This document shows, piece after piece, positions 1,444 to 22,264 of a DNA stretch of 32,000 nucleotides. Under the pieces are notes generated by a model. That model was not told the DNA's origin, did no database searches, and was given only the letters and a program-made list of their open reading frames with translations. The position numbers and the translations under genes were made by a program. The stretch is from contig CAYHYM010000001.1 of assembly GCA_964360965.1 (NCBI GenBank), positions 30,001 through 62,000 of the forward strand, given 5' to 3'. Each line of letters opens with the position of its first letter. Position 1 is the stretch's first letter. This DNA comes from an uncultured Gammaproteobacteria bacterium. Its GTDB lineage: Bacteria > Patescibacteriota > Microgenomatia > Daviesbacterales > UBA10151.

Positions 1444-1497
1444 TGGATTTTGCTAACGCGGCACTGAGCGTAGTCGAAAGGCAATAGAGGTTTATGT

Positions 1498-3449: not shown

Positions 3450-5981
3450 ATGAACATTGGTAAAATTCAACCGGCTCCCATAATTGAAGAGATGCAGCGG
3501 TCCTATTTGGACTATGCTATGTCCGTCATAGTCTCTCGGGCCTTACCTGATGTCAGAGACGGCCTAAAACCGGTGCAGCGACGCATTATCTATGCTATGC
3601 ATGAGCAAGGATTGCACCATACCTCAAGATATCAAAAGTCTGCAGCAGTTGTTGGTGAAGTTTTAAAGAATTTTCATCCCCACGGAGATACCCCTGTCTA
3701 TGAAGCCATGGTGAGAATGGCCCAAAATTTTTCCATGAGATATATGCTGGTTGACGGCCAAGGAAATTTTGGCTCCATTGATGGAGATTCACCGGCAGCC
3801 ATGCGATATACTGAGGTAAAATTATCCTCAATATCAGAAGAATTACTGCGTGATATCAACAAAAACACTGTTGATTTTACGGATAATTATTCAGGAACAA
3901 CTCAAGAGCCCGTCCTGTTGCCATCCGTTATACCCAATCTGCTGCTTAATGGAGCCTCAGGTATAGCTGTTGGCATGGCCACCCAAATTCCACCCCATAA
4001 TTTGGGGGAAGTATGTGATGCCTTGGTCTATATGATAGAACACCCAACCAGAACTGTCATTGCGACCCCGAATGAAACAAGGGGGGATAACAATATATTT
4101 TCCTCTGATGCCACTGTTGAAAATTTAGTCCAGTTCATCAAAGGTCCGGATTTCCCCACAGGCGCTGCTATTTTTGATCAAACAGAAATTATGGCAGCTT
4201 ATGCAACTGGTAAAGGCAGGATTGTCATGCGCGCCAGAGCAGAAGTTGAGGAGACAGAGGCGGGCTCGCCTCGCTCCGCGGGCGGAGCGGGAAAAATGCA
4301 AATCATAGTCACGGAAATCCCATATCAGGTTAATAAATCCACTCTTATCTCAAGGATGGCCGAGCTGGTCAAAGATAAAAAAATAGAGGGGATTGCGGAT
4401 TTGCGCGATGAGTCTGACAGAACACAGATGGTGCGAATTGTGATCGATCTGAAAAGAGACGGGAAACCCCAATCAGTTCTAAATAATTTATACAAACATA
4501 CTACTATGCAGTCTGTTTTTAATGTCAATATAGTAGGCCTTCTTGATGGAGTGCCGCATCTTTTAAACCTAAAACAAATTCTGCAGGAGTTTGTCAACCA
4601 CCGCCAGAGGATTGTCAAAAGACGTTCCGAATTTGAACTGGCTGAGGCTAAAGCCAGGGAACACATCCTGCTGGGACTGACAATTGCCGTTGATCAAATA
4701 GACGATGTCATTGAAACAATTAAAAAGAGCAAAGACGTTGAGATGGCCAAAGTTAATTTAATGGCCAAATTTAAACTAACAGAGATTCAATCGGTGGCTA
4801 TTTTGGATATGCAGCTGCGGCGTTTGGCAGCATTGGAAAGGCAAAAAATTGAGGATGAGCTAAAAATGGTTAAAGAAACCATCGCCTATCTTGAGAATCT
4901 GCTGATCTCGCCTGAAAAAATCTTAAGAGTTATAAAAGATGAGCTGGTAAAAATTAAGCAAAAATATGCAGACCCGCGACGCACCAAAGTTTACAAACAA
5001 AAAGTGGGGGAATTTAATGAGGAAGATCTGGTAGCCAATGAGGTGACAATTGTCACCATTACAGAAGGAGGTTATATCAAACGTCAGTCTCCCGCCTCTT
5101 TCAGGACTCAGGCCAGGGGAGGAAAAGGGGTTTTGGGCATTTCCACCAAAGAAGAAGATGCGGTTTCCCATATTTTTTATACCCAGACTCACGATAATAT
5201 TTTATTTTTTACCAGTATTGGAAAAGTTTATCAGGTTAAAGTTTGGGATATCCCGGAAACACAACGGGCTGCCAGGGGCCAAGCTGTGGTTAATTTAATA
5301 AATATTGAGCAAAGGGAAAAAGTCACTGCTGTTTTAACCAGAAGAGAGAAAGGAGAGGCGGCCAAATACTTCTTTATGTGTACCTCCCGTGGTACTGTCA
5401 AAAAAACCGCTCTTTCAGAGTATGCCCATATTAGAAAGAACGGGTTGTTGGCCATAAAACTGGGAGCGGGTGATAACCTGGGCTGGGTTTACCCAACAAC
5501 AGGATTAGATGATGTGATAATTGTGTCCCAAAAAGGCAAATCTATCAGATTTTCTGAAAAGGGGGTTAAGCCAACACACAGGGATACTTCAGGCGTCAGG
5601 GGTATCAGACTTACAAAAGATGATCAGGTGGTATCTTTAAATATTATTGGGGATGGACAGGGAGAGCTGCTGGTTATTATGGAAAACGGTTTGGGTAAAA
5701 AGACCAATATTTCATCCTGGAAAAGACAAGGCAGAGGAGGACAGGGAGTGAAGGCTGCCCAGGTTACTGCCAAAACAGGGAATATTGTCACAGCATCTTT
5801 AGTTGATAAAACCATGGATACGCTGATTTTAACATCAACCAAAGGCCAACTGATAAAAATGGACCTTAAACAGGTGCCAACGCTGCAAAGACAAACTCAG
5901 GGAGTAATTTTGATGAGAGCAAAAGACGGGGAAAAAGTGGCAGCAGCCACAGTGGTATCATCCAAGGAGAAGGTAGAATGA
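3450..5981 (+). CDS. gyrA: DNA gyrase subunit A
   Basis: 843 aa ORF. Motifs include [22 protein letters not shown] (active-site Tyr), EIPYQVNK and C-terminal beta-pinwheel repeats. Confidence 0.97.
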
Positions 5982-9113: not shown

Positions 9114-9664
9114 GGCAGAATATTTATCTCCAACTGATTAACTTTTTCCAAAATATCTGCTCCAGTGCCTGTTTCAGTCACATTAGTGTCCCCGGTTTTA
9201 CCTGGGGTAAAGTCCAATGAAACTTTGGTTAATCCTACAGCTTTGGCCACAAATGTTACTGCAGCAAACTGACCCTCCGGTATAACTCCGCCTTGCTGGG
9301 TGGTAATACCGGAGACAGATACTCTTCCCAAAGTCGCGTCAACCTTATTTTGCGGATAATCGGAAAAAATGGTCCCCAATACTGTTGGCTGGGCTGTTAA
9401 TAGTTTTGGGTCATAGGTAATTATCAAGTCCACCCCATCAACTTTTTTGGCCGAGGCGACATTTATAGTAACCAAAATTCTCTCCCTCACCCTAAGCTGA
9501 CTTTTATCAGCGGAGAGGCTGATGGAGGTTTGACTTGTAACAGGTACGGCAACAGTTGATGGAGGAGTTGGTTTAACCAAAGACCATCCGGCCCACAAAA
9601 CTTCTGCCAAAATTACCATACCCAGCACTATAAAAATGTTTCTTTTCACCAGATATTTTTGCAT
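9110..9664 (-). CDS. Membrane-anchored cohesin-like domain protein
   Basis: 184 aa ORF with an N-terminal TM helix. The cohesin-like pattern is ISLSADKSQL..ILVTINV..VDGVDLIITYDPKLL..GRVSVSG..GQFAAVTFVAK. It overlaps the downstream gene by ATGA. Confidence 0.65.
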   Translation of the reverse strand: MQKYLVKRNIFIVLGMVILAEVLWAGWSLVKPTPPSTVAVPVTSQTSISLSADKSQLRVRERILVTINVASAKKVDGVDLIITYDPKLLTAQPTVLGTIFSDYPQNKVDATLGRVSVSGITTQQGGVIPEGQFAAVTFVAKAVGLTKVSLDFTPGKTGDTNVTETGTGADILEKVNQLEINILP

Positions 9665-9683: not shown

Positions 9684-9986
9684 TCAACTGCCGAAGTCAA
9701 GGGCGGGCAGTTGAATTAAAGTCGCACCGGGTGAGGGGGAAGGTGATGGACTAACTTGTGCTGACGGAGAAGAGGAGGGGGCTGTTTCCTTGGTAATTTT
9801 TAATTTTACATTAGAGTTGGTAGTTTCTGTGATGACCTGACCTGTATCATTCACAAATTCCACCTTGGGGATAAAGGCTGCCCGAGGCCTAAAAATTTGG
9901 GTCTGACGTACCAAATACAAAGTAGCCGGAATAGCCACCAAGATAATTACAAAGCCTATTAAAATTAATGTTTGTCTTTTAGTCAT
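9684..9986 (-). CDS. Anchor-module-only paralogue (TM + LVRQTQIFRPRAA + short beta segment + Pro/Ser linker)
   Basis: 100 aa ORF. Its first ~66 aa are near-identical to the N-terminus of ORF 10020..11288. A strong SD (AAGGGGGT) lies 6 nt upstream. It may be a truncated duplicate. Confidence 0.5.
   Translation of the reverse strand: MTKRQTLILIGFVIILVAIPATLYLVRQTQIFRPRAAFIPKVEFVNDTGQVITETTNSNVKLKITKETAPSSSPSAQVSPSPSPSPGATLIQLPALDFGS
9790..9986 (-). repeat. Copy A of duplicated 197 nt N-terminal anchor module (copy B is 11092-11288)
   Basis: The two copies are colinear from their start codons. Bases 9790-9866 are 100% identical to 11092-11168 (77 nt) and the flanks are diverged. Confidence 0.9.
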
Positions 9987-10019
9987 TAACTTACCCCCTT
10001 ATAGATTAACCGACTCTTT

Positions 10020-11288
10020 CTACAGTGTCAACCTTTTACTTGTTCTCATCACATTATCAAAGTCTCCATGGATATCCCACCAATTTCTCAATTTTTTACC
10101 CTGATATGTTTTAGTGTTATTTTTTCCCGGCATGTTTTGCAGCATCCAAATTTGATAATTCAGTGCAGAGTTATTATTTATCGGATCTATATCCTGACAA
10201 CCCCAAATTTGACAACTAATATCTGTCAGCTGACCTAAAGTATCCGGATTCCAATCCAGACAATCAGATTTTTGGGGGGTTGGATTATTCCTGTCATATT
10301 CTGATCTGGCATTTGGTGGATTGTGCGCTGAACCGCACCTGCCATTCACCCCCAAAGTCTGCGGGAAATTTGGTCCCTGGAATTTATCTCTGTATAAACT
10401 TTTATCAACAGCATCAATTTCTGCCTCTATTTGATGTCCCCAAGACTCCAAAGCTTCTGCAGTAAACCTTTGATAATTAAATGTGTACACACGATAAGTA
10501 TTTGCACAAATTGGCATATCATTCTCTCCGCCGCTATTTGAGATATCCCCAAACGGCCCTGACATTTTTGATTCATAAATATCAAGATAGGGGTGACTGT
10601 CTGCTTTTGGCGAACCCTGATAACCCCAAAGCCATACCTCTTTTACCCCCTTACTGTCAACATAGTCGCAAATGTTGTGAGTTTGCATGATGCCCCGGTA
10701 GTCAGGGTAGGTTGGTTTATCCAACCGGGCTTTAATCGGTACTGCCTGCAGGTATTCTTTGGTATCAACGATTGTATAACGGAGAACCGGTTTTGCATTC
10801 GGATCTTTATATCCCAAATATGTGCTGGCTTTCTCCAAAGATATTTTGAGCTGGCTGGTCACATCATCAGTTCTTTTTTTGATCAGTTCATATGAATCAC
10901 CAATATCTCCTGTCACAGTAATATCAATACACTGCTGTTGGGGATTTAAGGAACAGGGAACAGAAGGAAAATATTTAATCAGCAACACATTTATATTAAA
11001 ACTTGTATCCAAGCCTGGTTGGAAAGTTGGAGAAGGGGATGGAGATGAAATTTGTGTGGGAGAAGGACTAGGAAAAGTTGTCACTGCTTCTTTGGTAATT
11101 TTTAATTTTACATTAGAGTTGGTAGTTTCTGTGATGACCTGACCTGTATCATTCACAAATTCCACCTTTGGAATAAAAGCTGCTCTGGGTTTAAAAATCT
11201 GAGTCTGCCTGACCAGATACATGGTGGCAGGAATGGAAATAAGAATAATGACGAAGCCTATGAGAATAAGTATTTGTTTTTTCGTCAC
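10020..11288 (-). CDS. Anchored extracellular protein, unknown ~330 aa Cys/Trp-rich C-terminal domain
   Basis: 422 aa ORF with a GTG start and AAGGGA upstream. It has a TM helix plus LVRQTQIFKPRAA motif, then a PSPSP linker. No family recognised. Confidence 0.7.
   Translation of the reverse strand: MTKKQILILIGFVIILISIPATMYLVRQTQIFKPRAAFIPKVEFVNDTGQVITETTNSNVKLKITKEAVTTFPSPSPTQISSPSPSPTFQPGLDTSFNINVLLIKYFPSVPCSLNPQQQCIDITVTGDIGDSYELIKKRTDDVTSQLKISLEKASTYLGYKDPNAKPVLRYTIVDTKEYLQAVPIKARLDKPTYPDYRGIMQTHNICDYVDSKGVKEVWLWGYQGSPKADSHPYLDIYESKMSGPFGDISNSGGENDMPICANTYRVYTFNYQRFTAEALESWGHQIEAEIDAVDKSLYRDKFQGPNFPQTLGVNGRCGSAHNPPNARSEYDRNNPTPQKSDCLDWNPDTLGQLTDISCQIWGCQDIDPINNNSALNYQIWMLQNMPGKNNTKTYQGKKLRNWWDIHGDFDNVMRTSKRLTL
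11092..11288 (-). repeat. Copy B of duplicated N-terminal anchor module
   Basis: See copy A. Confidence 0.9.
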
Positions 11289-11305
11289 TTTTCACTTTTC
11301 CCTTA

Positions 11306-13183
11306 TCACTTTAACAATATGCTGGCCGTTTGAGGAGGTATTGGTCCCCAAGCGCCACTTTCAAAAAACTGCACATACGCTGACTTTAATCCTGGTCCAC
11401 CTGTTAAAGTCAGATCCAAAGTGAAAACTGTTGCTGTACCCATATCACTTTGGGCTAAAACAGTGGCAAAATTAGGATCAAAGGAAACCCTGAAAGGCAG
11501 CAGGCCTGAAGGCACAGCAGAGGCGGTGGCTGTGGGGGAGGCTGAAGAAGTTGCCACCGGCGAGGCAGATGCAGTTGCCACAGGTGATGCGGCAGGACCA
11601 CCTACAGGGGGTTCTTTTGGTAGAGGGGGAGAGAACTGCTCATCAGATTGGTTGATATTCTGCCTCATACAGGCATAATCAATGGAATTAATCCTGCCAT
11701 CCCCATTAAAATCACCTGTTTTGACCACGTCTTTTACCAAACTCCACTGGCGGGTTAATTCTGCCCGATCAAAAGCATTTATTTTTCCATCAGCCTTGAT
11801 GGCTGGAGCAATATCACCAACCAGCAAAGTTACAGCCTCCAAATTCTTGGTACCGGTTTTGGTTTCAAATTCCACTTTTTTAGAGAGGGTATTGGGTGCT
11901 TTAATAACCAGGGCATACTTTTTATTTTTCTCCAGCTTTGGTGTAAAACCTGTCACTTTGCCATCTTTGTCCAGTTTGACTGTTTGTTCCAGAACCGGCT
12001 CCGGGTTTTCCGACTCGGCGCTGACCAGTACATTGGCAAAAATCTTCACTAACACATTATCCACTGCCAAATTCCCGCCAGCGCTCTTACATTGGGTTAG
12101 AGCGGCAAAGGTGACAGTGGTAGTGCCCACCGAACAGTCGGCTCTGGCAGTTTTGCTGTCATCACGGGTCAGCTCCACATCATTTTTGCCTTCCAATTTT
12201 TTATCCAAAATAGCTGTCACCACCCCTGTTGATTCATTCCAACTCAAAACTTCCGCATCAGTTCCACCCACCTTAACTTTGCCTTTACCTTTGGGGCCAA
12301 TATTGGTACCGGTGATGGTGATGCTGGTACCGGATCCGGAAATGGCATGAGTACAGCTGGCCTCAGAAATAGCAGGATTGGGGATAAAGTTGATCATCCG
12401 ATCTCTTCTTGAAATAACACCAGTATTTGATATAAAGAGGGCATGAATAGTATTTCTGCCAGGTTTGGTTAAGGTATGGGGTATCAGCTTGGGATGAGTA
12501 TCATAAAGTTGAGCGCCTTTATCTGCGCAAGAGGTAGCAGTAATTGGCCCTTTATCAGATATAAAGAAACAGGCAGTAGAAACAGGTGGAGTTGGGGATG
12601 GTGATGGGCTAGGTGATGGACTGGGACTTGGTGAAGGTGAAGGAGACGGTGAAGGAGACGGAGCCTGGTTGACTGTCAGGGCAGAAGGGGAAACAGACAG
12701 GGTTTCCAATGATAAATCTGATTTAACATTTTTCAGCAAGGAGGTATTCAGTATATCAATGCCATACTGATTGGGGGATTGGGATGTAAACACAAGTTCT
12801 ACAAACGAGGTAGTAACTGCCGCAGGCAATGTAAAGCTGGCTGCGGTGTCCAATTCTCCAACCAGTTTAATCTGGCCGTTTAAATTGATCTGGGCCAGAT
12901 TTTGGTCTCCATCGCCCTCCAATACATCAGATTTTTTGCCAACTTTGTAGGTAATGCTTTTCAGCTTAGCCTTAACTGGATCAAATTTAACATTAATTTG
13001 ATACATCCTTATCTTTAAGGCGGCAGTTGAAGTAAGCTGAGCATTGACTGTGAAATCCTGCCCTGCCGGCGCTACCAAGGCAGGCGGATTAAATGAGGAA
13101 GAAACTGTCTGGCCAAATGCGGCCCTGGGCAAGCCTAGTGTAGCAAGTAACAATAAAATAATAACAGTAAATTTTCTTTTCAT
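11306..13183 (-). CDS. Secreted multidomain protein: cohesin-like + (SP)n linker + IPT/TIG-like + beta-sandwich + dockerin-like repeats
   Basis: 625 aa ORF with signal peptide ..LPRAAFG/QT. The TIG-like segment is SGSGTSITITGTNIG..VKVGG. The dockerin-like Ca-binding pair is GDIAPAIKADGKINAFDRAEL ... GDFNGDGRINSIDYACM. Confidence 0.75.
   Translation of the reverse strand: MKRKFTVIILLLLATLGLPRAAFGQTVSSSFNPPALVAPAGQDFTVNAQLTSTAALKIRMYQINVKFDPVKAKLKSITYKVGKKSDVLEGDGDQNLAQINLNGQIKLVGELDTAASFTLPAAVTTSFVELVFTSQSPNQYGIDILNTSLLKNVKSDLSLETLSVSPSALTVNQAPSPSPSPSPSPSPSPSPSPSPSPTPPVSTACFFISDKGPITATSCADKGAQLYDTHPKLIPHTLTKPGRNTIHALFISNTGVISRRDRMINFIPNPAISEASCTHAISGSGTSITITGTNIGPKGKGKVKVGGTDAEVLSWNESTGVVTAILDKKLEGKNDVELTRDDSKTARADCSVGTTTVTFAALTQCKSAGGNLAVDNVLVKIFANVLVSAESENPEPVLEQTVKLDKDGKVTGFTPKLEKNKKYALVIKAPNTLSKKVEFETKTGTKNLEAVTLLVGDIAPAIKADGKINAFDRAELTRQWSLVKDVVKTGDFNGDGRINSIDYACMRQNINQSDEQFSPPLPKEPPVGGPAASPVATASASPVATSSASPTATASAVPSGLLPFRVSFDPNFATVLAQSDMGTATVFTLDLTLTGGPGLKSAYVQFFESGAWGPIPPQTASILLK
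12601..12643 (-). repeat. (Ser-Pro)n linker DNA, near-identical to 15707-15749
   Basis: gtgatgggctaggtgatggactgggacttggtgaaggtgaagg matches 15707-15749 at 42 of 43 positions. Confidence 0.85.
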
Positions 13184-13188
13184 ACTTT

Positions 13189-14115
13189 TTAACGCTTCCA
13201 GATATTCAAATCATCAGCGTCTATTTGACCGTCACCGTCAAAATCAGGGTTAACAGAGACAGGTATTTTACCTAAGTTTACCGCAGTCAGCCAGTAAAGA
13301 TAATCATTTTCATCTTTCACTCCGTTACCATCAGCATCACCTAGGGTTCTTGATGGTCTGTTGCACCAGCTATTTTTATCCTGGGTAGAGGGCACAATGT
13401 TGTAGATAGTTGCCGGAAGAGAACATTGTATCGGACCGCTTCCAGGAGGTAGTCCGTAATCTACCCCTGTCAGTTTGGTAAACTGGCAAGGAGAGGAGCA
13501 GCTGTTATCGGCTTGACACCCACATCCTGTCACAGGCGGGAGCGGAGAAGGCGAAGGAGAAACAGCAGGCCCTGTCACCATATATCTCCCTTCAATGTTT
13601 TCTGCAGTTATTAAAGTTGTTTCCGCTCCGGAGGCCACCAGTTCAAAGGCAGGGGCAAACCTGACAGTTGATACCCCTCCTGCCCTGGCCTTAAACTTGA
13701 GCGTTCCCAAAATCAGAACTCCTGAAGAGATGGGATCTTTCGACTTTCTTACAGCAGTAAAGCGGAACTGGCCCAAGGGATCATCCACAGTATTTCTTAA
13801 AGTGTCAAAACTTGAAAGAGCAGGGTCAAATGTGACAAGCTGTAAGATATTTGTGTTGTAGGCAAGCTGTATGTTTACTCCGGTAATATCCTGGTTTCGT
13901 GCATTCATCTTCAGCTGCACCTCAAATTCTTCTCCCGTATTTTTGCTGGATTCAGCAGGAGAGAGAGACAGTGTTACTGCGCCAGTAGGCACCGCAGCCC
14001 TACTTCTTAGGTCCTGAATCTGCCTGACCAGATATAAAGTTACTGGTATGGCCACAATCAGAATAGCCACTACCATAAACGGTATAATTTTTATCAATTT
14101 ATCTCTATCTATCAT
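13189..14115 (-). CDS. Anchored cohesin-like + dockerin-like protein
   Basis: 308 aa ORF with a TM helix and LVRQIQDLRSRAA motif. The cohesin-like pattern is VTLSLSPAES..FEVQLKMNA..ITGVNIQLAYN. The C-terminus GDADGNGVKDENDYLYW...DFDGDGQIDADDLNIW is dockerin-like. Confidence 0.7.
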   Translation of the reverse strand: MIDRDKLIKIIPFMVVAILIVAIPVTLYLVRQIQDLRSRAAVPTGAVTLSLSPAESSKNTGEEFEVQLKMNARNQDITGVNIQLAYNTNILQLVTFDPALSSFDTLRNTVDDPLGQFRFTAVRKSKDPISSGVLILGTLKFKARAGGVSTVRFAPAFELVASGAETTLITAENIEGRYMVTGPAVSPSPSPLPPVTGCGCQADNSCSSPCQFTKLTGVDYGLPPGSGPIQCSLPATIYNIVPSTQDKNSWCNRPSRTLGDADGNGVKDENDYLYWLTAVNLGKIPVSVNPDFDGDGQIDADDLNIWKR

Positions 14116-15686
14116 AGGTAACCATTTTTCCAGATACTGAAATCCACGGTATTGATTGAGTCGTCGCAGTTGAAGTCTGCCTTTTTACTCTTGGTTAAGG
14201 AATGTAACTCCCTGAACCAGATGTTAAAGTCTGAAAGATCCACATCACCATCTTTGTCAGCATCACCCTGGGAGGGGACACAAACCGCTGGTGTTGGGGA
14301 AGGGGAAGGAGAGGGAGAAGGGGAGGGGGAAACTGTAGGTTGAGGAGCTACACAAAAACCTCTATTTGGTTGATTGGCTTCACAAACAGGTTTTTGGGGG
14401 TCAACACAAAAAGAAGCATCTGTTTGACATTGACTGCCATGACATATCAGACAATCCCTAGCCTTGGAGGCTGAGACGCATTGGGCATCAATACATTTAT
14501 CTTTAAATTCCCTAAAATCAATTGACACCTTTCTTCTACATCTGTCATCCTCATCATCTTTGGTGGCTGCAAAATTATCACAATTAGGATCTTCTGTCTG
14601 TGTTTTGGGGTTATTTCTACAAACTCCACACTGGCCAAAGTTATAGGTATTTAGGATGGGGGTAGTGGTAGTTACACAGGCAAAACAAGATTGGCCTGAA
14701 ACAGCACAAGTCAGCTGGCTGGCTGGAACCCCTTGATAAGCCGGGGTATCAGAAGATGAAAGGCAACCAATAGTACCGGCTGGTTGGCACTGATATGTCC
14801 TTTCAGCTCCAAAAAGATTGCCTGCGGATACTCCCACAGGACAAGTGGGAACACCTAGGGCCCCACCGGGTAGGGTGGTAAAAACAATCAGACTAAGGTT
14901 ACACTGCCCACCAAATTCCTGACTTTTATCATTAAACATTCTCCACCTGAAGGGATATGTCCCAGCAGTTGTGGGCCCAATTGTGACATTAAAGTCCTTT
15001 TGATTGCCTGGTTCAATTGTGCTACCTACACTAATATTGGTTTTATCTGGCTTGAATGCCAACTCAGCACCTGAACCACCAGTGAATCTTAAGGAATAAT
15101 TTGATTGCCAGTTGTTAGTAACACCCCCAGTAGGGTCTTGAGTATTTCTTAAAATCATGGTGATGTTATAAGATTTGTTAATCACAACAATACCAGGGTG
15201 TTTATCATAAGGTTGGCCATCAATGGTGACGTCTGTACAGTCTGCCCTGTCTGCACCACCCACACCTACATTGCCAGATGAAGGTGAAGGTGGAGGTGGT
15301 GGTGGTGAGGCTGCAGCGGGACACTGCTTTGGTTCTGTACAACTGGAAGCATCACACTGCGGTTGATCACCTGGATCATTAGGATCGGCCACACCGTCAC
15401 TATTGATGTCCAGGGTGTTATCCGTATAAGTGGCAAAAGCCGTTAGATAACAACCGTTGGCATCTACAGATCCACAACTACCAACCGGCTGACCAACTTG
15501 TGGCTGGTTTGGCCTATTACACGGGAAAAGACCATCTGGGGCAGGACTCATAATCTCTGCTGCCTTTGATTTAAGTTGAGTTTGTTGTTGGACCAGTCTT
15601 ACTCCCACCAGAAGCCCCACAGCCAAAACCCCCAAAATCAACAGGGCAATGATATTTCTTTTAGATAATAATTTTGTTGCTTCCAT
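14112..15686 (-). CDS. Anchored Cys-rich protein with TSP3-like Ca-binding segment, NBR1-type Ig-like module and C-terminal dockerin-like repeats
   Basis: 524 aa ORF with a TM helix and LVQQQTQLKSKAA motif. Other elements are DINSDGVADPNDPGD, PGNQKDFNVTIGPTTAGTYPFRWRMFND, many CxxC pairs, an (SP)n linker, and GDADKDGDVDLSDFNIW...DFNCDDSINTVDFSIW. Confidence 0.65.
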   Translation of the reverse strand: MEATKLLSKRNIIALLILGVLAVGLLVGVRLVQQQTQLKSKAAEIMSPAPDGLFPCNRPNQPQVGQPVGSCGSVDANGCYLTAFATYTDNTLDINSDGVADPNDPGDQPQCDASSCTEPKQCPAAASPPPPPPSPSSGNVGVGGADRADCTDVTIDGQPYDKHPGIVVINKSYNITMILRNTQDPTGGVTNNWQSNYSLRFTGGSGAELAFKPDKTNISVGSTIEPGNQKDFNVTIGPTTAGTYPFRWRMFNDKSQEFGGQCNLSLIVFTTLPGGALGVPTCPVGVSAGNLFGAERTYQCQPAGTIGCLSSSDTPAYQGVPASQLTCAVSGQSCFACVTTTTPILNTYNFGQCGVCRNNPKTQTEDPNCDNFAATKDDEDDRCRRKVSIDFREFKDKCIDAQCVSASKARDCLICHGSQCQTDASFCVDPQKPVCEANQPNRGFCVAPQPTVSPSPSPSPSPSPTPAVCVPSQGDADKDGDVDLSDFNIWFRELHSLTKSKKADFNCDDSINTVDFSIWKNGYL

Positions 15687-15689
15687 ATT

Positions 15690-16088
15690 TTATATTCCAG
15701 GTGATGGTGATGGACTAGGTGATGGACTGGGACTTGGTGAAGGTGAAGGGCTTGGACTGGGGCTGGGAGACAGTGATGGAGAGGGGGATGGGGATGGTGG
15801 GAGTGGCAAATTAATTCCTTCCTCAGATTTTAAGAAAGGTGAATCCAACACCACATTTATTTCAGAATCTGTAGATGTACATTCACCAACAGCCGGACAA
15901 TTAACACCTGATTTTCCTTCTATTGCTCTAAAGGAGATCGGATCACCACCGGCTGCTTTGGATTTTAATTGCTGTTGGGTTTGGACCAGTTTAATCCCCA
16001 AAGGAATGGCCACAATCATAATGGCCAAAATCAAAAATGAAATGATGTTCTTCCTGGAAAAAAGACTGTTGTCTGAAGAATAATCCAT
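15690..16088 (-). CDS. Anchor-module-only protein ending in a long (Ser-Pro)n tail
   Basis: 132 aa ORF with a TM helix and LVQTQQQLKSKAA motif. The last ~35 aa are SPSPSP... and the stop lies 3 nt before the next gene's start. Confidence 0.5.
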   Translation of the reverse strand: MDYSSDNSLFSRKNIISFLILAIMIVAIPLGIKLVQTQQQLKSKAAGGDPISFRAIEGKSGVNCPAVGECTSTDSEINVVLDSPFLKSEEGINLPLPPSPSPSPSLSPSPSPSPSPSPSPSPSPSPSPSPGI

Positions 16089-16121
16089 TACCCTTACTCT
16101 AAAGCAAAAGATTGAAGTTTG

Positions 16122-17970: not shown

Positions 17971-18665
17971 AAAACAGCAAATTTTTGAAGGGAAATATGA
18001 GAAATTAGGCACACAAAAATGCTTGATAAAAAACTTATGCCTTTTATAATTAAATTTATCCTGAGCAAGCCTGAAGGACTCCTCCCTAATCCCACTTCTC
18101 TGACATCGCATAACCATGATTGTCCGACATTATTATATTTGGGGAAGAATGCGGAAAAGAGAGAATAGCCTTGGTCTTCTGATACGTGAGTAAAGAATCT
18201 CTAGATTACTCTCATGATCCTTCGCTAACGCTTGGGATGACAACTAGAAGAGCACCTCTCCTCCAAGAGGCTTCGGGTATTCTATGTAAGAAAGAATAAG
18301 CAATTATATGCACTAACTGACAGATTACTTTTAATCTTCAAGCGTCCATCCTTTTGCCGTAGGCAAAAGTGTACAGAGCTAATAACGAGAGTAAGATCGT
18401 GTGAGTCCTTAGAGTACGGAGTGCTATTGTGACAACGATCACAATAGTAGCGCAGTACTCGGGGGCTCGTAGTGCACGAACATCGTGAGAGCACGAAGAG
18501 ACCCATAGTTTTCCACATTTGAACTTGGCAAATATATAAAACTATATCACCTATAGTTTTCACGAAATATCTCATAATTTTTCACAGTTCGACTTCGCTC
18601 ACTGCAGGCACTCCTCTACTTCCAATTTGTCTTAACAATCCAATTCTCCATTGTCAATTGATTCT

Positions 18666-19999: not shown

Positions 20000-20056
20000 C
20001 AGCCATTCATTAGTAGTTTAGACACCTGGGGGGTGGATTAGGCAGGCATGTAGGGA

Positions 20057-20725
20057 TTATTCCAAAATAAGATGTTCAATCAGTTTTAATTTTCTTTGAT
20101 AGTCAGCTTGATCAAATACAAAATGTTTATATTTTTCCCTGCTTCCAAACATATCCAACACTAAATTTGGTTCTAAAAAACCATCATTACCAGTAAGATA
20201 ATTTGAAAAGGATGACCACGGATACTTTTCTAATTCACCAACAGTTCTAACTATAAAATTTGTATAAGGATTTAGGTGTATATATCTTGAAACATGAATA
20301 AACTGTTCATCAGTCTCTATCCTCTTGGCTTTAAATTGATCTAAAAATAAGGAGCCGTCCCGTTCATTCCTGGTATTATGATAACGAGTATAACTATTTT
20401 GGAAATTACCTATAAATTTTGAAATACCATCCTCCATTTTCTGCTTTAACAAGAAATGAAAATGATTGGGCATTAAACAAAAACAAATAATATCAACTAA
20501 TTTTTCTGCCTGGTTCGTAATTTTGGTAATCTCTTTTTGTTTATCTTGTTCCAACTCCAAAAATTTAGATAATCTAATAGGTGGGCTTGAAACTCTATAA
20601 AATTCAATTGCCAAAATTGCCCTTTGGTATTCTTTTTTTGTGGTAAAGGTGGGTTGCTTATTTATACCTCTGTTGTAAACATGGTAGATCTCATCCGTTA
20701 CAAGTGGAATTTTTCTACCTGGCAT
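20057..20725 (-). CDS. REP-associated tyrosine transposase-like (Y1/HUH, IS200-like) protein
   Basis: It has the HUH motif MPNHFHFLL, the catalytic-Tyr region SRYIHLNPY, and YPWSSF as is typical of RAYTs. TATTAT lies 6 nt upstream of the ATG. Confidence 0.85.
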   Translation of the reverse strand: MPGRKIPLVTDEIYHVYNRGINKQPTFTTKKEYQRAILAIEFYRVSSPPIRLSKFLELEQDKQKEITKITNQAEKLVDIICFCLMPNHFHFLLKQKMEDGISKFIGNFQNSYTRYHNTRNERDGSLFLDQFKAKRIETDEQFIHVSRYIHLNPYTNFIVRTVGELEKYPWSSFSNYLTGNDGFLEPNLVLDMFGSREKYKHFVFDQADYQRKLKLIEHLILE

Positions 20726-20756
20726 AAAGTCATAATAGATTAATTATCCCTGGGTG

Positions 20757-21395
20757 TCAACCTGAGACACCCCCCAGGTGTTTATAGGTGTTTATACAGG
20801 TGTTTATATCCACTGAATGGACACTCTCCGGATTCCCTATAACCATTTTGATATCGGCAGGTAGTTCAATCTCATGATGGTAAAATCCATCAACCACGCT
20901 TTTACCAATTTTCATACTAATAGGAGTTTTATAGTCTCTAATAATGGGAACCCCCACGTTGTCTCCTTCTCTAAAAAAGCTTCTCCACTCTGGTTTACCG
21001 ACGTCAGCAGGATAAAAATATTTGAACCTTGCCTTAGCTGCTTCAACATCTACCTGACAATCTGAATCAAAAGTCATACCATTAACACTTACTCTAAGTT
21101 TTAATTCAGATAAACACTGGGTTAACTGCATAAACCATGGTTCAGACACTACAGCTTTTAAATTTATATCAGGCCAATCCCAACCGTCTTTATTGTGATC
21201 TTCTCCAAATCTTACTGATATCAATGCCTGTCTTGAAGGTAACTCCACCTGTCTCACTTCTCCGTTAAATTCCCCGTCAAAAATATACTTTTTAAGTTGA
21301 AAAGCATGAACAACAGAATCACCTGACTGGTAAACTAATCTTCCATTAGTAAAAGGTTCAAATTGTTGATCAAATTTTCTAGTTTCAATATCCAT
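20757..21395 (-). CDS. Hypothetical cytoplasmic protein
   Basis: 212 aa ORF, 8 nt downstream of yebC. No family recognised. Its last ~20 codons are built from the repeat and inverted-repeat sequence next to the RAYT gene. Confidence 0.6.
   Translation of the reverse strand: MDIETRKFDQQFEPFTNGRLVYQSGDSVVHAFQLKKYIFDGEFNGEVRQVELPSRQALISVRFGEDHNKDGWDWPDINLKAVVSEPWFMQLTQCLSELKLRVSVNGMTFDSDCQVDVEAAKARFKYFYPADVGKPEWRSFFREGDNVGVPIIRDYKTPISMKIGKSVVDGFYHHEIELPADIKMVIGNPESVHSVDINTCINTYKHLGGVSG
20776..20807. repeat. Three tandem AGGTGTTTAT units
   Basis: Copies are at 20776-85, 20786-95 and 20798-807. They encode the C-terminal ..DINTCINTYKH.. of ORF 20757..21395. Confidence 0.8.
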
Positions 21396-21403
21396 AATTT
21401 GCC

Positions 21404-22264
21404 TTAAGTAGCCTCTCTTAAAATTTCCTCAGCTATATCAAAATTTGCGTAAACTTTTTGTACATCATCCAACTCCTCTATTTTTCGGGCAAAATCCAGT
21501 ACTTTTTTGGCAGTTTCCTTATCTTTTATTTCCATCAAGGTATTAGGTTTATAAACAATTTCAGCCTGCTCTACCCCATACCCTACTTGAGTAATTTTTG
21601 TACTCATAGTATTTAACTGGGAGCTTTCTACATATACTAAATATCCTCGCTTTTCTTGAGCGTCAGCGAAATCCCTTCGGGTCTGAGCTCTTCGAGTCCG
21701 AGCCTCAGAGTCGAGGACCTCAGGGTCGAAGACCTGAGCGAAGTCGAAGGATTCCACATCCTCCGCTCCCAAATCTATTAACTCCAACATTTCCTGTTCT
21801 CTGTCATCCTCCTTTTCGGGGGCCCGCTGTCCCCTAACTTTTATCTCCCCAATTCTATCAAACATATAAGCCACACTTCCCTGCCCAGCCAAAGAACCAC
21901 CTGCTCTTTCAAATAAATTCTTCACTTCCTGTAAGGTCCTCAGTTTATTATCTGTCATCCCCTCCACTAAAAAGGCCACTTTCCCCGGCCCAAAACCCTC
22001 ATACGTGACTTCTTCAATACTTTGACCGGGTAATTTACCCAAACCCCTGTCAATGGCCCGTTGCACGTTCTCCTTGGGCATATTAACAGCTTTTGCCTCA
22101 TCCATGACTACCCTCAAACGAGGATTAGACTCCGAATCACCGGATCCCCCCATTTTAGCAGCAATAGTGATGGCATTAGCTACTTTAGTAAAGGTCTGTC
22201 CCCTCTTTATATCCGCAGCCCCTTTTTGCCTTTTTATCGTCGACCATTTGGAATGTCCGCTCAT
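21404..22264 (-). CDS. yebC: YebC/PmpR family transcriptional regulator / translation factor, with a ~35 aa internal insertion
   Basis: The N-terminus is MSGHSKWSTIKRQKGAADIKRGQTFTK. Other motifs are NPRLR, YEGFGPGKVA and DDVQKVYANF. At 286 aa it is longer than the ~240-250 aa typical of the family. Confidence 0.93.
   Translation of the reverse strand: MSGHSKWSTIKRQKGAADIKRGQTFTKVANAITIAAKMGGSGDSESNPRLRVVMDEAKAVNMPKENVQRAIDRGLGKLPGQSIEEVTYEGFGPGKVAFLVEGMTDNKLRTLQEVKNLFERAGGSLAGQGSVAYMFDRIGEIKVRGQRAPEKEDDREQEMLELIDLGAEDVESFDFAQVFDPEVLDSEARTRRAQTRRDFADAQEKRGYLVYVESSQLNTMSTKITQVGYGVEQAEIVYKPNTLMEIKDKETAKKVLDFARKIEELDDVQKVYANFDIAEEILREAT
21647..21751 (-). repeat. GC-rich degenerate tandem/palindromic element in frame inside yebC
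   Basis: The units are cctcagagtcgagga / cctcagggtcgaaga / cctgagcgaagtcgaagga, plus tgagcgtcagcgaa. Together they encode SFDFAQVFDPEVLDSEARTRRAQTRRDFADAQEKR. Confidence 0.7.

Follow-up and report, generated by a model that had tools for sequence, protein, structure and literature searches.

An in-frame insert in yebC of a Daviesbacteria-type bacterium, probably derived from hairpin repeat DNA

We analysed a 32-kb stretch of a bacterial genome (hereafter the window, the only part of this genome covered) in which the yebC gene carries an in-frame insert of 35 codons, rich in guanine and cytosine (GC). We consider it likely that this insert arose by in-frame insertion of selfish-type repeat DNA and is not an ancestral feature of the protein. 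It is composite: a 45-nt cassette, shared with other lineages and encoding SFDFAQ followed by DFADAQEK, is interrupted at the junction of its two halves by a nested block of 60 nt (Table 1). The first half of the cassette holds a copy of a dispersed hairpin repeat whose apex, GAGCGNAGTCGA, is invariant and whose stem covaries, and the cassette is identical at the nucleotide level across lineages in which yebC differs by 20-30%.

Table 1. Features of the window; coordinates are those of the window, with strand where assigned.
Feature	Position	Strand	Remarks
yebC (TACO1/YebC family), 286 aa	21404..22264	-	open reading frame (ORF); Pfam PF20772 and PF01709; NCBIfam NF001030
35-codon in-frame insert, S172-R206, beta-hairpin tip	21647..21751	-	exact mapping of SFDFAQVFDPEVLDSEARTRRAQTRRDFADAQEKR
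Cassette part 1, hairpin core M', CT-GAGCGAAGTCGA-AGGA	21734..21751	+	SFDFAQ on the minus strand
Nested quasi-palindromic block, 60 nt, peptide VFDPEVLDSEARTRRAQTRR	21674..21733	.	absent from the cassette of L001, L014, P0004 and P0005
Cassette part 2, TCGCTTTTCTTGAGCGTCAGCGAAATC, second degenerate core of GAGC-GTCA-GCGA type	21647..21673	+	DFADAQEKR on the minus strand
Second in-frame element in yebC (hot spot 1), QRAPEKE, decayed copy of CAGCGGGCCCCCGAAGGGGAGGG	21807..21829	-	
Intergenic hairpin copy, CAGT-GAGCGAAGTCGA-ACTG	18585..18604	-	12 nt upstream of the start of ORF 18282..18575
Intergenic core copy, CTGAGCGTAGTCGAA, weak stem	1463..1480	+	between gyrB and the next ORF
27-nt GC-rich palindromic insert, GGCTCGCCTCGCTCCGCGGGCGGAGCGGGA, peptide GSPRSAGGA	4262-4291	+	inside gyrA (3450..5981)
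yebC-ruvC interval	20013-21395		RAYT-like gene 20057..20725; 212-aa ORF 20757..21395, no family match

The insert and the hairpin repeat within it

The host gene is a member of the TACO1/YebC family, its product scoring 96 bits with PF20772 and 153 bits with PF01709, both above the curated cut-offs, and 260.8 bits with NF001030, the YebC/PmpR model (cut-off 243). Relatives in the Protein Data Bank are 1LFP, 4F3Q and 1KON, and the nearest homologues, which share 64-77% identity, are YebC proteins from Candidatus Daviesbacteria, a group within the candidate phyla radiation (CPR). An earlier reading of the window, made from the sequence only, had placed an in-frame GC-rich segment of about 35 aa in this gene. 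We recovered exactly that segment, with a GC content of 57% (21650-21749) against a window mean of 41%. The same reading had assigned the excess length of the protein to this one segment, and most of it does lie there: relative to the Daviesbacteria baseline of 250 aa, about 27 aa fall in this loop, but a further 5 aa or so (QRAPE) fall at 21807-21829 and 4 aa at the C-terminus. In most of 120 Daviesbacteria homologues the loop has 10 residues, of the type EDVEDFLEDNIQKYLVY, in a protein of about 250 aa.

The segment is lineage-specific. None of the solved YebC/TACO1 structures has it, nor do distant orthologues, and it is missing in most orthologues, including the closest non-carrier, P0006 (here and below, P numbers denote proteins and L numbers loci). 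When aligned to the Aquifex aeolicus structure 1LFP, residues 1-172 of the window protein correspond to chain residues 1-166 and the alignment restarts at residue 208 (chain 171); a 4-residue turn between two beta-strands stands in 1LFP where the window protein has its insert. An AlphaFold2 model built from 55 homologues (mean predicted local distance difference test, pLDDT, 84.9) brackets the insert with strands at residues 169-174 and 206-213, and its pLDDT falls to about 53-54 over insert residues 181-200, where a few short helices are predicted. Because of these flanking strands and the 4-residue turn of 1LFP, the insert is, as modelled, an excursion at the tip of a beta-hairpin and not a linker joining domains. 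The earlier reading had asked whether the insert falls in a surface loop between domains; it falls in a loop, but not between domains.

What had been taken for a single element of about 35 aa has two layers, although the idea of a lineage-specific in-frame insertion stands. The cassette, TCCTTCGACTTCGCTCAG plus GATTTCGCTGACGCTCAAGAAAAGCAA, is common to the window and to L001, L014, L283 and L286, and occurs in modified form in L007; its peptide fills the loop in a minority of the 120 Daviesbacteria homologues. The 18 nt of part 1 do not differ at all among the window, L001, L014, L283 and L286, and part 2 differs almost nowhere among the six carriers. Part 2 also resembles a repeat, GTCATTCTGAGCGTCAGCGAAAAATC, that adjoins a GIY-YIG gene in L206. 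In L001, L014, P0004 and P0005 the cassette is otherwise identical and lacks the nested 60 nt, the junction of which is ambiguous by 1 nt.

Four degenerate 15-nt units, a pair in either orientation, make up the nested block, and they resemble halves of the adjacent core. Tandem Repeats Finder reports 15-nt arrays at 21675-21703 (score 44) and 21703-21735 (score 52), whose consensus units are approximately reverse complements of each other. The tandem units of about 15 nt described previously (21703-21717, 21718-21732 and 21733-21751) are present, but most of them belong to this private block. In direct reading, adjacent units agree at 12-13 of 15 positions and inverted partners at 10-11 of 15, and since neighbours are the more alike we read the 60 nt as a local amplification of the existing cassette, which may have come about by slippage and template switching on the hairpin. 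We found no second copy of the block in the window or in the 2.6 Mb of fetched DNA, and a search of 1.84 billion representative proteins gave, a single chance match aside, nothing related to the nested 20-aa peptide. The single match of the 35-aa insert, P0121, is a 1240-aa protein with an unrelated tandem repeat, and for that reason we treat it as chance. The units had been described as rich in short palindromes; the nested 60-nt block is quasi-palindromic, but the 105-nt block as a whole folds only weakly as single-stranded DNA (ssDNA; z = -1.39).

Part 1 connects the insert to a family. The 14-mer TGAGCGAAGTCGAA lies at 21735-21748 (plus strand), at 18588-18601 (minus strand) and, with one mismatch, at 1465-1478 (plus strand), and both copies outside yebC fall between ORFs, as had been noted from the letters. 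Its three matches in the window compare with 0.12 expected, and none of 100 shuffles reached three. Across the fetched loci conservation covers 12 nt, which read GAGCGNAGTCGA or, on the opposite strand, TCGACTNCGCTC and form the apex of a hairpin whose arms vary from copy to copy (CCCT/AGGG, TCCT/AGGA, TCCC/GGGA, CAGT/ACTG, GTTC/GAAC and GGT/ACC). In 45 copies, counted after removal of those whose arms had been fixed by the CCT/AGG viral search pattern, 88% of the cells in the 4-bp stem next to the apex are paired, compared with 55% in shuffles; the covariation score of the stem is 0.85 versus 0.25, a value as high was not reached in any of 500 shuffles, and controls slid along the sequence gave 0.08-0.23. 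The fetched DNA contains 108 distinct copies of the core, which answers the concern that the repeat might have no other members.

The family is widespread: besides Bacteroidetes, Levybacteria and Alphaproteobacteria, other groups carry it too, and so do at least 120 IMG/VR viral contigs of all GC contents, where it often forms tandem or inverted pairs and is flanked recurrently by GGGCAGGC, GGGTGACA or GGATGAC. The viral contigs were scanned with the pattern CCTTCGACNNNGCTCAGG; because the roughly estimated count is of the same order as chance, we set the number of matches aside and used their content. Among the viral-scan matches listed, the central N of the core is each of the four bases about equally often. 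L014 and L031 retain the copy at 18588, in intergenic DNA at the orthologous position. In L029 a 27-nt unit of this family, GTAGTTTAC-CCC-GAGCGAAGTCGA-GGG, interrupts the orthologue of the 18588 copy in its middle. The same kind of unit, G(T/C)AGTTTA(C/T)-CCC-GAGCG(A/G)AGTCGA-GGG, sits in opposite orientation at the exact centre of an existing core in both L029 (12085-12125) and L007 (2621-2650), the host core being intergenic in the former and inside yebC in the latter. As these units split cores of their own kind, the family nests into, and so targets, itself. Rfam reports no family over the window at its gathering thresholds, and for the Bacteroidetes copy pair nothing beyond microRNA and snoRNA matches at chance level. 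Several further ideas were dropped for lack of any test or fit, namely mimicry of tRNA T-arms or D-arms, a hammerhead core, a k-turn, the P4 helix of RNase P, the 5' region of 16S rRNA, the ssoA CS-6 element and uptake sequences.

The same core is found beside genes for small proteins that consist of a GIY-YIG domain only (91-106 aa in the repeat-flanked genes). In the Sphingomonas locus L201, reached via plasmid records, the core lies to either side of a 106-aa GIY-YIG gene, upstream as a perfect 24-nt inverted pair and again at the 3' end of the gene. Three Daviesbacteria loci carry GIY-YIG-only ORFs of 91-93 aa with GTCAT-led hairpins on both sides, and among these hairpins GTCATCCTGAACGAAGTGAAGGATC is a near copy of the core. 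We fetched 80 metagenome loci with a profile of these three ORFs and found GTCAY-led hairpins of the pattern stem-GA-RC-loop-GY-GA-stem in 53 of them and the exact core type in 8 (for example GTCAT-CCC-GAGCGTAGTCGA-GGG-ATC, GTCAT-TCC-GAGCGGAGTCGA-GGA-ATC and GTCAT-TCT-GAGCGAAGTCGA-AGA-ATCTC); in L208, L227 and L271 copies with the leader lie inside the 0.8-kb flanks of the GIY-YIG genes. The 22-mer CCTGAGCGAAGTCGAAGGATTC of the window (21733-21754) recurs at position 1584 of L231, an unrelated contig, again in the 0.8-kb flank of a GIY-YIG gene. Overall, GTCAT or GTCAC precedes 13 of the 108 distinct copies, including those that adjoin GIY-YIG genes, and other leaders (GCCTGY, CTCAT, GTTCGS and GTTTAY) are also common. 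A GIY-YIG ORF lies within 10 kb of yebC in 3 of 35 related Daviesbacteria loci (L005 9100-9480, L021 12900-13400 and L067 13100-13520, with the ORFs themselves at 9147-9440, 12977-13261 and 13166-13447). We also noticed one, likewise less than 10 kb from yebC, in another CPR locus (L045 3590-3945), where it is followed by the palindrome CCTGCCTGCCGGCAGGCAGG, which occurs in-frame in several ORFs as LPAGRQ.

Spread of the cassette and competing accounts of its origin

To follow the cassette among lineages, we compared carriers by identity with the loop and a second hot spot masked, and after masking they do not form a clade. Specifically, the carrier P0005 shares 95.7% identity with P0072, which lacks the cassette, and no more than 81% with any other carrier. 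Among the window, L001 and L014, only 0-1 of the 15-16 codons for the same amino acid differ synonymously within the cassette, compared with 37-46% in the rest of yebC (Fisher p 0.001-0.004), and divergence returns in the codons directly beside it. Patchy distribution together with nucleotide identity in diverged yebC genes leads us to infer that the cassette spreads, or is renewed, at the DNA level.

The yebC genes of P0005 (L283) and P0072 (L284), which are 91% identical at the nucleotide level, differ by three indels, each a GC-rich palindrome: 12 nt completing CCGCCAGCTGGCGG, which also occupies the yebC loop of L005; an 18-nt perfect palindrome, CTCGCTTCGCGAAGCGAG; and the loop cassette, where the 30 nt following the 18-nt core are replaced as well. 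Replacement beyond the core suggests that, at least in this pair, the loop segment was exchanged by recombination and not simply inserted. Substitutions between L283 and L284 are clustered, which suggests that yebC here may be a mosaic, recombining gene. More generally, loop inserts are present in 33 of 121 Daviesbacteria YebC proteins, at four or more positions, and are drawn from a small GC-rich vocabulary. Several mini-palindromes have been gained and lost recurrently at the same loops, and the same DNA elements are read in different frames (QRAPEGEG and TAGPRRGG; PFDxAQG and PERSRG).

Our account of the events starts from what the comparisons show. A cassette of 45 nt occupies the tip of the YebC beta-hairpin, its active part being a copy of a widespread hairpin repeat in which the invariant 12-nt apex is closed by a stem of any sequence. 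This repeat belongs to a multi-phylum and viral family whose GTCAY-led copies flank small GIY-YIG genes in the layout of the Ssn nucleases and their NTS/SRM repeats. On this basis we propose that the cassette spreads or is renewed as DNA, most likely either because homologous recombination exchanges the loop segment or because targeted insertion is repeated. In the window, half-cores may then have been duplicated and inverted locally, by slippage or template switching on the hairpin, which would have added the 60 nt. YebC would tolerate the result because the turn is solvent-exposed and the core can be read through in five of its six frames, and the inserted peptide is probably a floppy, charge-paired excursion without a required function.

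It is important to point out that several observations weigh against this account. The density of copies in Daviesbacteria is low, at about one per 40 kb, and half of them are the yebC loop itself, in a census of about 0.6 Mb of related DNA that was centred on yebC. In comparison with P0072, part 2 of the cassette looks replaced and not cleanly inserted. Selection on the DNA could explain why synonymous change is almost lacking, but so could recent spread, or the two together. With respect to the nuclease connection, none of the three copies in the window has the GTCAY leader, the 32-kb window holds no GIY-YIG ORF, and the core is a minority type among the repeats near the sampled GIY-YIG clade (8 of 80 loci). 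Moreover, the published SRM string, HGTCWYN(0-2)YYVSBRHN(0-5)WNVSBRGN(0-2)RNCYNB, matches NTS but none of the core copies tested, does not fit the hairpins around the Daviesbacteria GIY-YIG genes, and occurs 0 times in the window and 3 times in the 125 kb around GIY-YIG genes. Because the string is unmatched, the window copies are leaderless and the window has no GIY-YIG gene, we call the repeat Ssn-repeat-like, by its architecture and association, and not a proven SRM.

A bolder proposal is that such hairpins, as targets of GIY-YIG ssDNA nucleases, are deliberately kept by nucleotide-level selection in genes of CPR bacteria for genome maintenance and translation (the yebC-ruvC operon and gyrA). 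They would then act as intragenic marks that decide what becomes of incoming ssDNA in natural transformation, a coding counterpart of the NTS and of the DNA uptake sequences (DUS) of Neisseria, and RPE-like insertions (after the Rickettsia palindromic elements, RPEs) and Ssn repeats would be one phenomenon. We regard this as rather unlikely.

Alternatively, the whole block could be the product of local replication slippage, a low-complexity tandem expansion of loop codons with no mobile or dispersed element involved. The 15-nt arrays, the closer likeness of adjacent units than of inverted partners and the lack of any other copy of the nested 60 nt all speak for such an origin. But the core of the cassette is identical over 22 nt to the GIY-YIG-flank copy on an unrelated contig, more than 100 distinct copies make up the family to which it belongs, whose stem covaries, and the same 45 nt recur in non-sister lineages. 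Slippage is thereby refuted for the 45-nt cassette and plausibly explains the nested 60 nt only; as an account of the entire insert it is quite improbable.

We give equally little credence to an adaptation at the protein level, in which the segment would be an acidic-plus-basic helical arm through which YebC contacts the ribosome or nucleic acid, the repeat DNA being incidental. The palindrome does encode an acidic half (FDPEVLDSEA) and a basic half (RTRRAQTRR), short helices are predicted in the AlphaFold2 model, and the insert is kept in frame. Yet its pLDDT is only about 53, other lineages have unrelated peptides in this loop, the DNA elements recur in further genes and reading frames, conservation is at the level of nucleotides and not of amino acids alone, and the nested 20-aa peptide has no relatives. 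We disfavour adaptation because the contents of the loop are interchangeable, several frames are used and the confidence of the model is low.

A further candidate lies nearby. A Y1 transposase gene (PF01797) resembling RAYTs, the tyrosine transposases associated with repetitive extragenic palindromic (REP) sequences, sits between yebC and ruvC about 700 nt downstream and could have mobilised the insert as a REP-type element. This gene is not there in relatives; it belongs to an insertion of about 1.4 kb, and yebC and ruvC are adjacent in some 30 relatives. Its product scores 50.8 bits with NF047646, below the cut-off of 80. The outer flank of the gene reads GTAGTTTAG and then a hairpin, and the 27-nt unit of the repeat family begins with GTAGTTTAC or GCAGTTTAT, which could indicate a common leader. 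However, the resemblance over GTAGTTTA amounts to three cases, that string has many chance matches, and the shared leader is probably a coincidence. The gene is flanked instead by ACACCTGGGGGGTG, which is present only there in the window, in inverted copies at 20022 and 20768, the right one forming the last codons (..HLGGVSG) of the 212-aa ORF. Five homologues at other loci have flanking palindromes of the CACC..GGTG type and never the GAGCGNAGTCGA core, and a search of viral contigs with the RAYT-like protein returned no relatives. We therefore consider mobilisation by this transposase very unlikely. Least probable of all is an ancestral YebC loop lost in most lineages: repeated precise loss could also produce patchiness, but the segment is absent from solved structures and distant orthologues, most of the 120 Daviesbacteria homologues have the 10-residue baseline loop, and an old segment would have gathered the synonymous changes of which almost none are seen.

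Comparison with known repeat systems

The sequence-only reading had likened the segment to RPEs. These occur in-frame in conserved housekeeping genes, with both coding and non-coding copies, and comprise ten families of about 150 bp, each encoding a conserved peptide (PMC10969869). The likeness is one of behaviour. In both cases repeat DNA lies in-frame in housekeeping genes at sites tolerated by the fold, copies are both coding and non-coding, and the genomes are of a small, host-associated type. Here yebC carries such DNA at two sites, further copies are intergenic, and a different palindrome lies in-frame in gyrA. The units are set apart by their size (a hairpin of 20-27 nt and a cassette of 45 nt, against roughly 100-150 bp), by peptides that vary with copy and frame, and by the lineage, which is CPR/Daviesbacteria. 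Since the repeat unit is a 20-27-nt hairpin and not an element of about 150 bp, membership in an RPE family is not supported, although the insert behaves like RPEs.

Single-domain Ssn GIY-YIG proteins of the size found here are site-specific ssDNA nucleases (Chenal et al. 2025, PMC11893778). The ssn genes are flanked by hairpin repeats of their own, for which the general name is SRM and the name in Neisseria is NTS. Such repeats carry the directional leader CGTCAT, exist in hundreds of solo copies and modulate natural transformation in N. meningitidis, where only 2% of the NTS copies are intragenic (PMC11893778). Our repeat family shares with them short hairpins, within the 20-50-nt range of inverted repeats and with a covarying stem, many dispersed solo copies and a wide phylogenetic spread. 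A 5' leader, GTCAT or GTCAC, precedes part of its copies, among them those beside GIY-YIG genes. It also shares the placement on both sides of a single-domain GIY-YIG gene of about 90-100 aa, which is seen for the family (both sides in L201) but not for the copies of the window itself. It differs in the apex and in the GAGC..GCGA hairpins, which depart from the published SRM string, and in that half of the Daviesbacteria copies seen are in-frame in one gene, compared with the 2% of intragenic NTS. The window copies are leaderless. Any role of a nuclease here would be by analogy.

REPs and their composites (BIMEs and REPINs) likewise are short GC-rich palindromes that cluster and nest, and the window does have a RAYT-like gene with palindromes of its own. 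REPs are nevertheless extragenic by definition and their stem is conserved within a genome, whereas in our repeat conservation lies in the apex and the stem varies freely; nor is the hairpin repeat found inverted around the RAYT-like gene, which has CACC..GGTG flanks in the window and at the five other loci. Mitochondrial GC clusters are small GC-rich palindromic DNA in AT-rich genomes. Like these and like small mobile sequences of the MITE (miniature inverted-repeat transposable element), ERIC and RU types, the elements described here are small GC-rich palindromes that can sit in-frame inside genes. For the MITE/ERIC/RU types, in-frame gene fusions are described (PMC10969869; PMC2759123). A MITE would show terminal inverted repeats and a target-site duplication, neither of which we saw on comparing filled with empty sites, where part of the loop is replaced and not interrupted, and our units are several-fold shorter.

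Other in-frame elements in the window and significance

The second element in yebC, at hot spot 1, is absent from P0006, P0004 and P0003. The 23-mer from which it has decayed is also found in the yebC genes of L003 and L013, and L004 has it in a different frame within a 313-aa ORF that is unrelated. The GSPRSAGGA peptide of GyrA occupies a beta-hairpin loop and is missing in six relatives. Its palindrome differs from the yebC hairpin repeat but is the same kind of in-frame element, and it recurs in the yebC loops of P0107, P0089 and P0069 and within an ORF of 266 aa in L039; L001 (973-1075) has it too, broken up by a nested insert. Elsewhere in the window, we observed a run of large minus-strand ORFs (9700-16100) with glycine/acidic repeats of the GGTGA(A/T)GG type, one of which has dockerin and TIG matches, and within this run a 204-nt duplication (9782-9985 and 11084-11287, 82% identical). 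We also observed aaaaaagNataggtgccaaNctaNtCCACCTGGAGGGTGg, an intergenic string conserved at apparently orthologous sites in L004 (6667), L006 (5560) and L009 (6552), which could be a small RNA or a regulatory site.

To our knowledge, in-frame repeat insertions in conserved genes, which are textbook matter for Rickettsia, have rarely been shown elsewhere, and our findings extend RPE-like behaviour to CPR bacteria, with much smaller units. In the literature we came across no account of such hairpins, or of other palindromic elements, lying in-frame in genes of CPR bacteria, and nothing relevant on the peptide motifs and DNA strings of the insert. The repeat is tied, by its sequence and its genomic context, to the hairpins of small GIY-YIG nucleases, a system (Ssn) that was characterised only in 2025. 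Together, nucleotide identity in diverged genes, patchy distribution and recurrent loop indels make the yebC insert a testable case for nucleic-acid elements that shape protein loops. Such segments inflate and diversify the protein sequences of CPR bacteria, and we advise masking them in alignments and phylogenies. Finally, the invariant apex is a candidate substrate for new specificities of Ssn-type nucleases.

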